DNA from: an uncultured archaeon
GTDB taxonomy: Archaea > Asgardarchaeota > Thorarchaeia > Thorarchaeales > CAZPUN01
Length of the DNA: 32,000 bases
NCBI GenBank assembly: GCA_964589775.1
Contig: CAZPUN010000013.1
Location: forward strand, 38,515 to 70,514
Reading direction: 5' to 3'
Of the stretch, positions 14,502 to 20,212 are shown in pieces. A model generated the notes under the pieces. It did not search any database, was not told where the DNA came from, and was given only the letters and a program-made list of their open reading frames with translations. Every line of letters begins with the position of its first letter. Position 1 is the first letter of the stretch. The translations under genes and the position numbers were made by a program.

Positions 14502-15716
14502 ATGGGTATGACAATGACGGGATCAGTAACTGACAAAGATAACAAACGAATTAATGATGCATATTTATCTAGTTATGCACAACATCTTGAAAGAAAATTA
14601 AGAGCTCTTGAAACTGAAAAGCAAATCTTGCATGCTGAAAGAGCAAGACTTCAACAAGAGCTTCATTCATTACGAGTTGAATTAGAAAAAATGCGGCATC
14701 CTCCGCTTGTTGCTGCTACTATTGTTGATGTATTACCTGATGGGCGAGCTATTGTTCGTAGTACTACTGGGCCCTCGTTCGTTGTATATGTTGCATCATC
14801 AATACCACAAAAGTATTTACAACCGGGAAGTCATGTTGCATTAAATCAGAGAACTTTTGCGATAGTTGAAGGTCTTCCTGTAAATCGAGAACCATTTATT
14901 AAAAATATGGAAATTGAAGAGGTTCCGAATGTTACATATGATGATATTGGTGGATTACATGAACAAATCCGTGAAATTAGAGAGACTGTTGAACTTCCAC
15001 TATTAAAACCCGAATTATTTGAAAAAGTTGGAATTGAACCACCAAAAGGCATATTACTTACTGGGCCTCCCGGGACTGGAAAAACATTGTGTGCAAAGGC
15101 TGTTGCACATGAAACAAAAGCAACATTCATTAAAGTAATTGCATCCGAATTCGTTCAGAAGTTTATTGGTGAAGGTGCGCGTATTGTTCGTGAAATTTTT
15201 GACTTAGCACGTGAAAAAGCCCCTACAATTATGTTTATCGACGAGTTGGATGCTGTTGGAAGTCGCCGCTTAGATATTGCAACTAGTGGAGATCGTGAAG
15301 TACAACGGACTCTTATGCAGCTTCTAAGTGAGATGGATGGTTTTGAATCTCGTGGGAATGTCAGAATTATTGCAGCTACAAATCGACCTGATATTTTAGA
15401 TCCTGCACTGTTAAGACCCGGACGCTTTGATAGAATCATTGAATTTACTCTACCTAATCTAGATGGGCGTATTGAAATATTCAAAATCCACACAAGAAAT
15501 ATGAATATAGATAAAGATATTGATTTCATAAAATTAGGCGAATTAAGCGAACATGCAACCGGTGCAGATATTAAGGCTATTACGACTGAAGCCGGCATGT
15601 ATGCCATACGCGCAGGTCGAACAAAAGTAACAATGGATGATTTTATCAACGCAATTGAAAAAGTTTTACATAAAACAAGTAGATCATTCAAAGCTCCTGT
15701 TGATATTTACGCCTAA
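14502..15716 (+). CDS. pan: Proteasome-activating nucleotidase
   Basis: Coiled coil plus OB domain, [34 protein letters not shown], HbYX C-terminus IYA. Confidence 0.97.
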
Positions 15717-15829
15717 TTTTTCCTTTTTTTACTTAACAATTTTTTATATTCTGATGTATTTTTTTAATATGTACATATTATTTTTATCTGATAACGTAAT
15801 TCTATTAAGATTATAAATCTCAATTTTAT

Positions 15830-16043
15830 TTGCGATGACGAGATATTCCCACTATCGAGGGCGCGTTGAGAAATATCGATGATACGCTGCGCAATATGTG
15901 GGAAACATCTGAGCAAGCGCCGGAACTACAGAAACACCAGAATTCCTGGCACGAGAGAGCTCAGCAGAGGTGGACGGAATGTCCTGACTGTGAAGCTGAG
16001 TGTTAGTGCGTTAGGATACAGGTGTTCCTGTACCGGCGCTTTT
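15830..16043 (+). ncRNA. Putative two-hairpin H/ACA guide RNA with box C/D cap on hairpin 1
   Basis: GC-rich island in an AT-rich spacer; two hairpins, each with pocket, apical K-turn and ACA 14 or 16 nt from the pocket; ATGACGA/CTGA K-turn closes hairpin 1; ends in a T-tract. Confidence 0.75.
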
Positions 16044-16048
16044 AGATT

Positions 16049-16714
16049 TTAAATCTCAATTGTATCTCCAGGATTTAGAATGTGTGCTTTTGTATTTGGC
16101 GATTCTTTTTCGACGTATTTCATAAATTCATTAGGATCTTTCTCTATTACCGGAAATGTGTTATAATGCATAGGTATTACATGTTTAACTCCTAATAGTT
16201 TAGTAGCAATAGCTGCTTCCTTAGGTCCCATTGTGAATGTCGAACCAATCGGTAATAGTGCAATATCTGGTTTATAAACATCGCCTAATAATTTCATATC
16301 ACCAAATAATCCAGTATCACCGGGATGATAAATTGTATGACTTGCAAATTTCACAATGAAGCCGATAGGTGCCCCGATTGATGAAGAATGGAATGCTCGG
16401 GTCATAATTATTTCGGTATTTCCTAATTTATATGTACCACCAATATTCATCCCTAATGTATTTTTCACTCCTTTTTCAGAAGCAACATTTGCTAATTCGA
16501 AGATACTCACAAAGGTTGCATTGGTTTTTTTAGCAATTTCTATGCCTTCATCTAGTCCATGGTCTCCATGATCATGAGAGACAAAAACAAAATCACATTT
16601 ATTTATGTCATCAATTTTCATTTTTGAAGTTGGAGCTGATAACCATGGATCAAAGAAAGCAATTACATCATCCTCAATTTTAAAACCTGCATGTCCTATG
16701 TATGTTATTTTCAT
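16049..16714 (-). CDS. Metal-dependent hydrolase, metallo-beta-lactamase fold (UPF0173-like)
   Basis: MKITYIGHAG start, DPW, SHDHGDH, YHPGDT, LPIG, PMHYNTF. Confidence 0.92.
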   Translation of the reverse strand: MKITYIGHAGFKIEDDVIAFFDPWLSAPTSKMKIDDINKCDFVFVSHDHGDHGLDEGIEIAKKTNATFVSIFELANVASEKGVKNTLGMNIGGTYKLGNTEIIMTRAFHSSSIGAPIGFIVKFASHTIYHPGDTGLFGDMKLLGDVYKPDIALLPIGSTFTMGPKEAAIATKLLGVKHVIPMHYNTFPVIEKDPNEFMKYVEKESPNTKAHILNPGDTIEI

Positions 16715-19837: not shown

Positions 19838-19962
19838 GGTATGCTGGCCATAGGTGGTGGTGATACGCCTGTTCCCATCTGAACACAGAAGCTAAGACCA
19901 CTACCGGTCCGCGTAGTAGTGCGGTGCGCGAGCCCGTGCAAGCCGCGGATAGCTAGCAGCCA
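19838..19962 (+). rRNA. rrf: 5S rRNA, not linked to 16S/23S in this window
   Basis: GGCCATAG, GCCTGTTCCCATCTGAACACAGAAGCTAAG, GCGAG hairpin, terminal helix TGCTGGC/GCTAGCA. Confidence 0.93.
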
Positions 19963-20073: not shown

Positions 20074-20212
20074 GCGGAGGTATCCAAGCCCGGTCAAAGC
20101 CTGTCGGCTTACCGACGACTACCTCTGAGAATGGGGTCAGGCGATCTAAGGAGCCAGACTTAAGATCTGGTCGAGTAGTCGTTCGCGTGTTCAAATCGCG
20201 CCCTCCGCACCA
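20074..20212 (+). tRNA. tRNA-Leu(TAA) with 51-nt intron at 21/22 (20098-20148)
   Basis: GCGGAGG/CCTCCGC, CCAGA-CTTAAGA-TCTGG, variable arm CGA-GTAG-TCG; BHB GGTC-AAA-GCCTG...CAGGC-GATC-TAA. Confidence 0.92.

Follow-up and report, generated by a model that had tools for sequence, protein, structure and literature searches.

We find that the base of a box H/ACA guide hairpin in an Asgard archaeon is closed by a conserved kink-turn (K-turn) with box C/D-like sequence. The hairpin occupies positions 15830–15916 of the window, by which we mean the whole stretch of 32,000 nucleotides that was analysed, and, taking guide and basal clamp together as a single explanation, we consider it on balance likely that it is the first module of an unannotated two-hairpin box H/ACA sRNA of about 212 nt (15830–16043). 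What is new is the architecture: a second K-turn, box C/D-like, lies directly under the ACA box and is kept across many Asgard families. The guide function is already known: it concerns an established pseudouridine in the peptidyl transferase centre, conserved over great evolutionary depth, which is here extended, together with its guide, to the Asgard archaea.

Direct reading of 15600–16150 located every element that an earlier, sequence-only reading of this DNA had listed (Table 1). The hairpin has the layout of a box H/ACA guide, with a lower stem, an internal loop that forms the pocket, an upper stem, a K-turn 5–6 bp above the pocket and an ACA box at 14–16 nt, here exactly 14 nt from the end of the upper stem (15890). 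The upper stem consists of six pairs, with T15888 bulged, and is followed by a U.U pair and by the apical K-turn, which is built from GA (15868–69), a 2-bp mini-stem GA/TC with the loop AATA, the bulge GAT (15878–80) and a second GA (15881–82). In alignments of homologues the pairs of the upper stem and the mini-stem covary, and UGA...AUGA is retained. The outer frame, TTGC-GAT-GA-CGA ... CTGA-GCAA, has the geometry of a box C/D K-turn; a small internal loop immediately above this frame holds the ACA box. As far as sequence can tell, this basal motif comprises a C stem, a 3-nt bulge, tandem sheared G.A/A.G pairs (G15837.A15912 and A15838.G15911) and an NC stem; C15839 lies opposite U15910, and the pairs G15840–C15909 and A15841–U15908 follow.

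Table 1. Elements of the two-module RNA and its upstream region, in window coordinates.
Element	Position	Strand	Basis
Possible promoter, AT-rich, with TATA-like words CTATTAAG (15801–08) and TTATAAAT (15811–18)	15801–15818	+	Sequence only; presumed start
Terminal (C) stem, 5′ strand TTGC; partner GCAA (15913–16)	15830–15833	+	Direct reading; inner pairs covary
Basal K-turn, box C-like strand: bulge GAU (15834–36), sheared GA (15837–38), CGA (15839–41)	15834–15841	+	Direct reading
Linker GATA, opposite the ACA box in the internal loop	15842–15845	+	Direct reading; UA retained in most homologues
Lower stem, 5′ strand TTCCCAC; pairs with GTGGGAA (15898–15904)	15846–15852	+	Seven of seven pairs vary on both sides in alignment A6
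Pseudouridylation pocket, 5′ strand TATCGAGG; pairs with 23S CCUCGAUG	15853–15860	+	CGAGG retained in essentially all homologues
Upper stem GCGCGT (15861–66)/ACGC(T)GC (15884–90) and apical K-turn (15867–15883)	15861–15890	+	Direct reading; covariation
Pocket, 3′ strand GCAATAT; GCAA pairs with 23S UUGC immediately 5′ of the target U	15891–15897	+	GCA(A/U) retained in homologues
Lower stem, 3′ strand (15898–904), and ACA box (15905–07)	15898–15907	+	ACA (few ANA) retained in alignments
Box D-like strand T-CTGA (15908–12) and terminal stem, 3′ strand GCAA (15913–16)	15908–15916	+	Direct reading
Second module: H/ACA hairpin with long basal helix, then T tract	15917–16043	+	Fold; alignment of Rfam HgcG motif 3; BLAST-level conservation in relatives

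Taken alone, the 95-nt piece has an unremarkable energy fold (z −1.69), and a loose K-turn frame (4-bp stem, N3, GA ... GA, 4-bp stem) encloses 1400 of 400,000 random 62-nt segments of the host genome. The strongest argument against chance is comparative, because the hairpin and the outer motif are both kept with covariation across Asgard genomes. In raw flanks from other Asgard families, a TTTAAG/TTTATA word stands 25–30 nt upstream of the first base of the terminal stem.

The host 23S rRNA gene contains GGCTTGC-TA-CCTCGATG exactly once. At this site the pocket pairs over 4+8 bp, including one G.U, around an unpaired UA (UUGC-UA-CCUCGAUG), with 4 bp on the 5′ side of the target U and 8 bp on the 3′ side. 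Under the H/ACA pocket rule no other site in the host 16S, 23S and 5S rRNAs reaches at least 9 bp, and this unique site in the host's own 23S bears out the earlier proposal of an H/ACA guide that fits the U equivalent to E. coli 2496. Of 2000 shuffled pockets, 30 did as well (4+4, total 12). In the host genome no more than 4 bp form 5′ of the target U. We take the target U to be E. coli 2496, counting from the well-known string C2498-C-U-C2501-G-A2503-U2504-G-U2506. In Pyrococcus abyssi, Psi2588 has been demonstrated experimentally and is guided by motif 1 of Pab40 (= HgcG, Pf7, Afu-4), and Psi2549, Psi2588 and Psi2603 are reported to be conserved in eukaryotes (PMC2377435), in agreement with the earlier statement that the site is modified there as well. 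The guide function is therefore of a known kind, Psi2588 being the equivalent site that Pab40 motif 1 serves. The yeast counterparts are presumably Psi2826, Psi2865 and Psi2880. With these yeast numbers, the spacings of 39 and 15 are identical between the two species, so the equation of the site with yeast 2865, drawn in the sequence-only reading, holds. With Pab40 motif 1 at P. abyssi U2588 as the model for the reaction, Cbf5, Nop10 and Gar1, together with L7Ae on the apical K-turn, would convert the 23S U (E. coli 2496 equivalent) to pseudouridine. Genes for Cbf5, Nop10, L7Ae, fibrillarin and Nop5 are all encoded in the host genome.

The hairpin had been read as a unit of its own. It stands as an H/ACA guide, but it is merely module 1 of a longer, HgcG-like RNA: the 219-nt region folds well against shuffles (z −5.11), and a second hairpin at about 15943–16021 has the pocket GAGAGA/GTTAG (15953–58/16002–06) and an ACA box at 16018–20. 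The basal helix of this second module is formed by GCGCCGG (15917–23) and CCGGCGC (16033–39), and the RNA's 3′ end lies at the T tract near 16043. The predicted target of hairpin 2 is UGAC-UC-UCUU in helix 69 of the spliced 23S rRNA (E. coli 1921 equivalent), with 4+4 bp, a pairing that is weak when taken alone as 228 of 1000 shuffles do as well. The host 23S gene carries in helix 69 an 800-nt intron-like insertion with a hairpin at its end (C23:101409–102208), flanked by GACUCUC and UUAAGGUAGCC. Because the predicted target crosses the insertion junction, hairpin 2 would pair only with spliced rRNA.

At gathering thresholds, Rfam gives no match at the locus. In a permissive scan HgcG (RF00064) is the best family, with 23.8 bits (E 8.4e-5 in a 401-nt search) against a gathering threshold of 77, and the match is weak but ordered, with HgcG motif 1 falling on hairpin 1 and motif 3 on hairpin 2. 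The host RNA is thus a distant relative or analogue of HgcG and not a member by Rfam's rule. Most Asgard homologues consist of three modules, and those recovered from Thorarchaeota-named genomes are three-hairpin RNAs; in the host RNA the middle module is missing, and the last module stands on a long basal helix. In Asgard homologues each H/ACA module has its own basal helix (window 15917–16039; loci L208, L219, L221, L232, L244 and L270), and the ACA box lies in an internal loop, with about 4 nt on the 5′ side and ACA on the 3′ side, leaving no free tail.

The host is the sole species of its family in the genome set and shares its order with genomes named Thorarchaeota; public records list those members of the order in which this RNA occurs as Candidatus Thorarchaeota or Promethearchaeota, which makes the host an Asgard archaeon. 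A BLAST search with the 261-nt RNA against 40 relatives matched hairpin 2 alone. The idea drawn from this search, that hairpin 1 is lineage-specific, was rejected, as covariance models found hairpin 1 in the relatives. A model built from the host sequence alone (R1) matched over its full length in 50 of the 87 genomes examined from the order. In the resulting order-level alignment (A2) the lower stem, the upper stem and the mini-stem of the K-turn covary, while CGAGG, GCA(A/U), the K-turn and ACA stay constant; the share of paired cells is 91.8% and the covariation score is 0.49, compared with 0.19 after shuffling. All 31 homologues of the Thorarchaeota family have, at the base of module 1, a plain helix of 6–13 bp instead of the K-turn (for example UUGUUCAGGA/UCCUGAACAA). 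The consensus of this helix is uGUUCAGG/CCUGAAC (loci L011–L039), in which CUGA pairs with UCAG. The terminal stem is UUGU/ACAA in the Thorarchaeota relatives and UUGC/GCAA in the host, a change on both sides. At the level of the order, the C/D-like motif had looked like the one-off decay of a plain helix, a view that was overturned by the phylum-wide search. No copy of the RNA was found on the metagenome contigs beside the PAN gene, where the closest PAN relatives reach at most 64% identity over full length (69% for one partial sequence).

Across the Asgard phylum, 151 genomes were sampled with a second covariance model (R2), built from 17 sequences. It recovers the RNA from 91 of them; among the 72 of high quality the count is 56. 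Alignment A6 holds 59 sequences from outside the Thorarchaeota-named family, with representatives of every family that has a match. The basal K-turn signature was scored where both aligned dinucleotides read GA. So defined, it is found in 49 of these 59 sequences and in eight of 12 families, the host's included. It occurs in all sequences of seven families (f1, f3, f9, f12, f13, f16 and f21) and in four of five of an eighth (f22), and within this alignment it is absent from f5, f7, f14 and f25. The bulge is GAU or AAU (RAU) in 43 of the 49 K-turn-bearing sequences, and in 49 of the 59 a GA immediately precedes the terminal stem's 3′ strand. The two Watson–Crick pairs that lie over the G.A pairs show 94.7% pairing, with changes between A-U and G-C, and the inner pairs of the terminal stem covary as well (GC 38, AU 12 and GU 4 for one; CG 36, UA 10, AU 6 and UG 6 for the other). 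Overall, A6 is 85.8% paired and its covariation score is 0.75 against 0.22 when shuffled; for both A2 and A6 none of 500 shuffles reaches the observed score and slid controls stay at or below 0.11, in alignments fitted to models derived from the host sequence, which favours the structure.

Raw flanks were also inspected, and in other families the motif is plain without alignment, with UAGC-GAU-GA-AAGG or AAGU-AAU-GA-UGG on the 5′ side and ACA-CUG-GA-GCUA or ACAUC-CUGA-AUUU on the 3′ side. Family f9 has a textbook, near-canonical AUGAUGG/CUGA combination with a U.U pair. The terminal stems that adjoin the K-turn are 2–4 bp long and often A/U-rich. The enclosing C/D-like K-turn of the sequence-only reading is hence real and conserved with covariation across Asgard families, and the check for covariation in relatives that it had proposed turned out positive for the hairpin (A2 and A6) and for the basal motif (A6). 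Judged by its distribution rather than by a rooted tree, the basal K-turn would be ancestral and would have been lost in the Thorarchaeota family. A search of the literature, which is no proof of absence, found neither an archaeal nested C/D–H/ACA RNA nor an Asgard H/ACA RNA.

What is the role of the basal K-turn? Most likely it serves as a second binding site for L7Ae and so holds the module's ends together like a clamp. A second L7Ae would bind the basal K-turn and stabilise the 4-bp terminal helix, which may be too short to stand alone. In this way the 5′ end of the transcript, which the terminal stem probably contains, would be tied to the junction with the next module and the fold would be fixed; such a clamp would probably protect or define the ends of the RNA. 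The Thorarchaeota family replaces the K-turn and 4-bp stem by a helix of 6–13 bp, which argues that the selected property is closure of the base and not a C/D enzyme. The replacement amounts to a natural exchange, with a protein-independent element in place of a protein-dependent motif. The PUA domain of Cbf5 might be in the way of a K-turn situated 2 bp below the ACA box.

The same motif could instead work as a true box C/D motif, with L7Ae, Nop5 and fibrillarin as its proteins, so that one RNA would carry both the H/ACA and the C/D protein sets, as eukaryotic scaRNAs of the U85 type do, with or without methylation; we hold this to be unlikely. In its favour, a box C-like AUGA and a box D-like (C)UGA stand in the right order and in register with the terminal stem, the succession C, D′-like, C′-like, D is that of a C/D sRNA, f9 comes close to the canonical boxes, and genes for fibrillarin and Nop5 are present in the host. 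In addition, Rfam C/D families match weakly at the termini of the RNA, and the hairpin model itself weakly matched an ordinary-looking C/D sRNA (L065). The host box C, AUGACGA, departs once from RUGAUGA and box D is CUGA; across families AUGA and GA alone are invariant. Against this reading, box C is variable in its second half, and the 3b.3n position is A.G, U.G, U.U, A.A, A.U or C.U. The segments between the boxes, about 24 nt long, are paired to each other, whereas the spacers of a C/D guide are free and about 12 nt long. The search for a methylation guide 5′ of the D or D′-like box, run over host rRNA and the tRNAs called by ARAGORN, returned GU-rich 9-mers only; the nucleotides at these positions are strands of the lower and upper stems, which covary and differ between families. 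With no methylation guide conserved or detectable, the RNA is no U85-type dual guide, and the composite guide that the sequence-only reading had proposed finds no support: in addition to the stem strands that occupy the guide positions, an entire sister family, that of Thorarchaeota, has a plain helix and no K-turn at all. The broader proposition that many Asgard archaea keep an H/ACA hairpin in a genuine C/D frame, with Cbf5-Nop10-Gar1 and Nop5-fibrillarin sharing L7Ae on one RNA, is in our estimate improbable too. If true, it would provide a prokaryotic counterpart, even a forerunner, of the eukaryotic composite scaRNAs, and could represent a living link between the two classes of guide RNA.

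Two further explanations do without a clamp. There is a small chance that the outer motif of the host is a decayed basal helix that looks box C/D-like by accident and binds nothing. Relatives of the same order do have a plain helix in which CUGA is paired with UCAG, and the loose frame, taken alone, encloses 0.35% of random segments; yet the motif recurs in eight families, the host's among them, with invariant GA/GA, an RAU bulge and covarying flanking pairs, and, compared with the Thorarchaeota relatives, the host has a terminal stem that is altered on both strands. Very improbable, in our view, is a box C/D sRNA with double-length spacers, whose D′-side guide would methylate tRNA-Leu and whose likeness to H/ACA RNAs would be secondary. 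In its favour is a perfect 9-nt complement, GAGGGCGCG (15857–65), directly 5′ of the D′-like TTGA, the partner of which (window 20197–20205) covers part of the T-stem and acceptor strand of an intron-rich tRNA-Leu. These nine nucleotides, however, are the end of the pocket and a strand of the upper stem. Families differ in the upper stem, whose pairs covary, and the complement is therefore not kept. By a rough, uncomputed estimate, an anchored, GC-rich 9-mer of this kind has a chance of a few percent to occur in about 9 kb of stable RNAs, and tRNA position 65, the nucleotide that it would mark, is not known as a site of methylation. The residues that are conserved are those that pair with 23S around the unpaired UA, together with the ACA box at 14 nt, and we judge the 9-mer to be a coincidence.

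Several known RNAs resemble parts of this architecture. Pab40/Pf7/Afu-4 (HgcG, RF00064), from Pyrococcus and Archaeoglobus, is a box H/ACA sRNA with three motifs and, like that of the host, has several hairpins. Its motif 1 addresses the same 23S position as host hairpin 1 (P. abyssi 2588; PMC2377435), and its last motif is likewise aimed at helix 69. The two RNAs share the pocket word CGAGG and differ in the other, which is GCGA in Pab40 and GCAA in the host. Unlike in Pab40, motif 2 is missing in the host genome. The Rfam HgcG consensus includes neither the closure of each host module by a basal helix, with the ACA box in an internal loop, nor the basal K-turn of module 1. Within the Asgard archaea, the RNA of the Thorarchaeota family differs from that of the host in having a plain helix on module 1 and in keeping motif 2, whereas the host has the K-turn and no motif 2.

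Combinations of the two guide classes have been described. In Pyrococcus, Pab21/Pf1 (snoR9, RF00065) unites an H/ACA guide with a box C/D motif in one transcript and occurs in vivo in forms with and without the C/D part (PMC2377435, PMC4652768). In Pab21/Pf1 an H/ACA hairpin and a complete C/D sRNA stand in tandem, whereas in the host the C/D-like boxes embrace a single H/ACA hairpin and there is no C/D guide. In U85, as reportedly described by Jady and Kiss in 2001, the H/ACA domain is enclosed by a C box on its 5′ side and a D box on its 3′ side, the two being paired via a terminal stem. RNAs of the U85 type guide both methylation and pseudouridylation and have a two-hairpin H/ACA domain; the host RNA has one hairpin in the frame, no methylation guide and its second module outside, so that the likeness is one of topology only. 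With archaeal box C/D sRNAs the host module has in common the terminal K-turn (a C box of the RUGA... type and a CUGA D box), the short terminal stem, an internal K-turn in D′-then-C′ order, and L7Ae as the expected binder. It departs from them in its base-paired segments of about 24 nt, compared with free spacers of about 12 nt, in having no target complementarity at D or D′ and in a box C whose second half is not conserved.

The architecture predicts two L7Ae molecules per module and suggests a simple way in which an H/ACA RNA could have its ends fixed and protected. It also offers a natural test case for the difference between K-turns of the C/D class, to which Nop5-fibrillarin is recruited, and those of the H/ACA class, whose partners are Nop10-Cbf5. 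Eukaryotes, in which C/D–H/ACA composites exist, have their nearest known relatives in the Asgard archaea. This kinship makes the finding of interest for work at the bench, although the evidence favours a structural role.

The host assembly comprises 2.16 Mb in 64 contigs, with 35% G+C and a listed contamination of 3.94%; together with this figure, the very uneven distribution over contigs of islands with at least 56% G+C suggests that some contigs may not belong to the host. The contig that holds the window (C13) also carries SRP RNA, 5S rRNA and Nop10. The 16S (C23:20552–22053) and 23S (C23:99368–103215) genes lie 77 kb apart on one contig, and as the 5S gene is on another (window 19840–19961), the rRNA genes are unlinked.

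The Pyrococcus H/ACA families HgcE and HgcF were not found in the host genome, and strict regular-expression scans of it for canonical C/D sRNAs and H/ACA hairpins gave nothing or noise. A looser scan yielded three ordinary-looking C/D sRNA candidates, G+C-rich and about 57 nt long, with AUGAUGA ... CUGA, a terminal stem and degenerate C′/D′ boxes, at C20:33901–33958 (+), C34:3779–3835 (−) and C23:46427–46484 (−), the minus-strand coordinates counting along the reverse complement of the contig. The ordinary-looking C/D sRNA L065 (L065:3205–3269, minus strand, on metagenome contig Ga0315275_10000002) reads AAUGAAGA ... CUGA ... GAUGAAGA ... CUGA, and its weak match to the hairpin 1 model illustrates the C/D sRNA box order of the capped hairpin.
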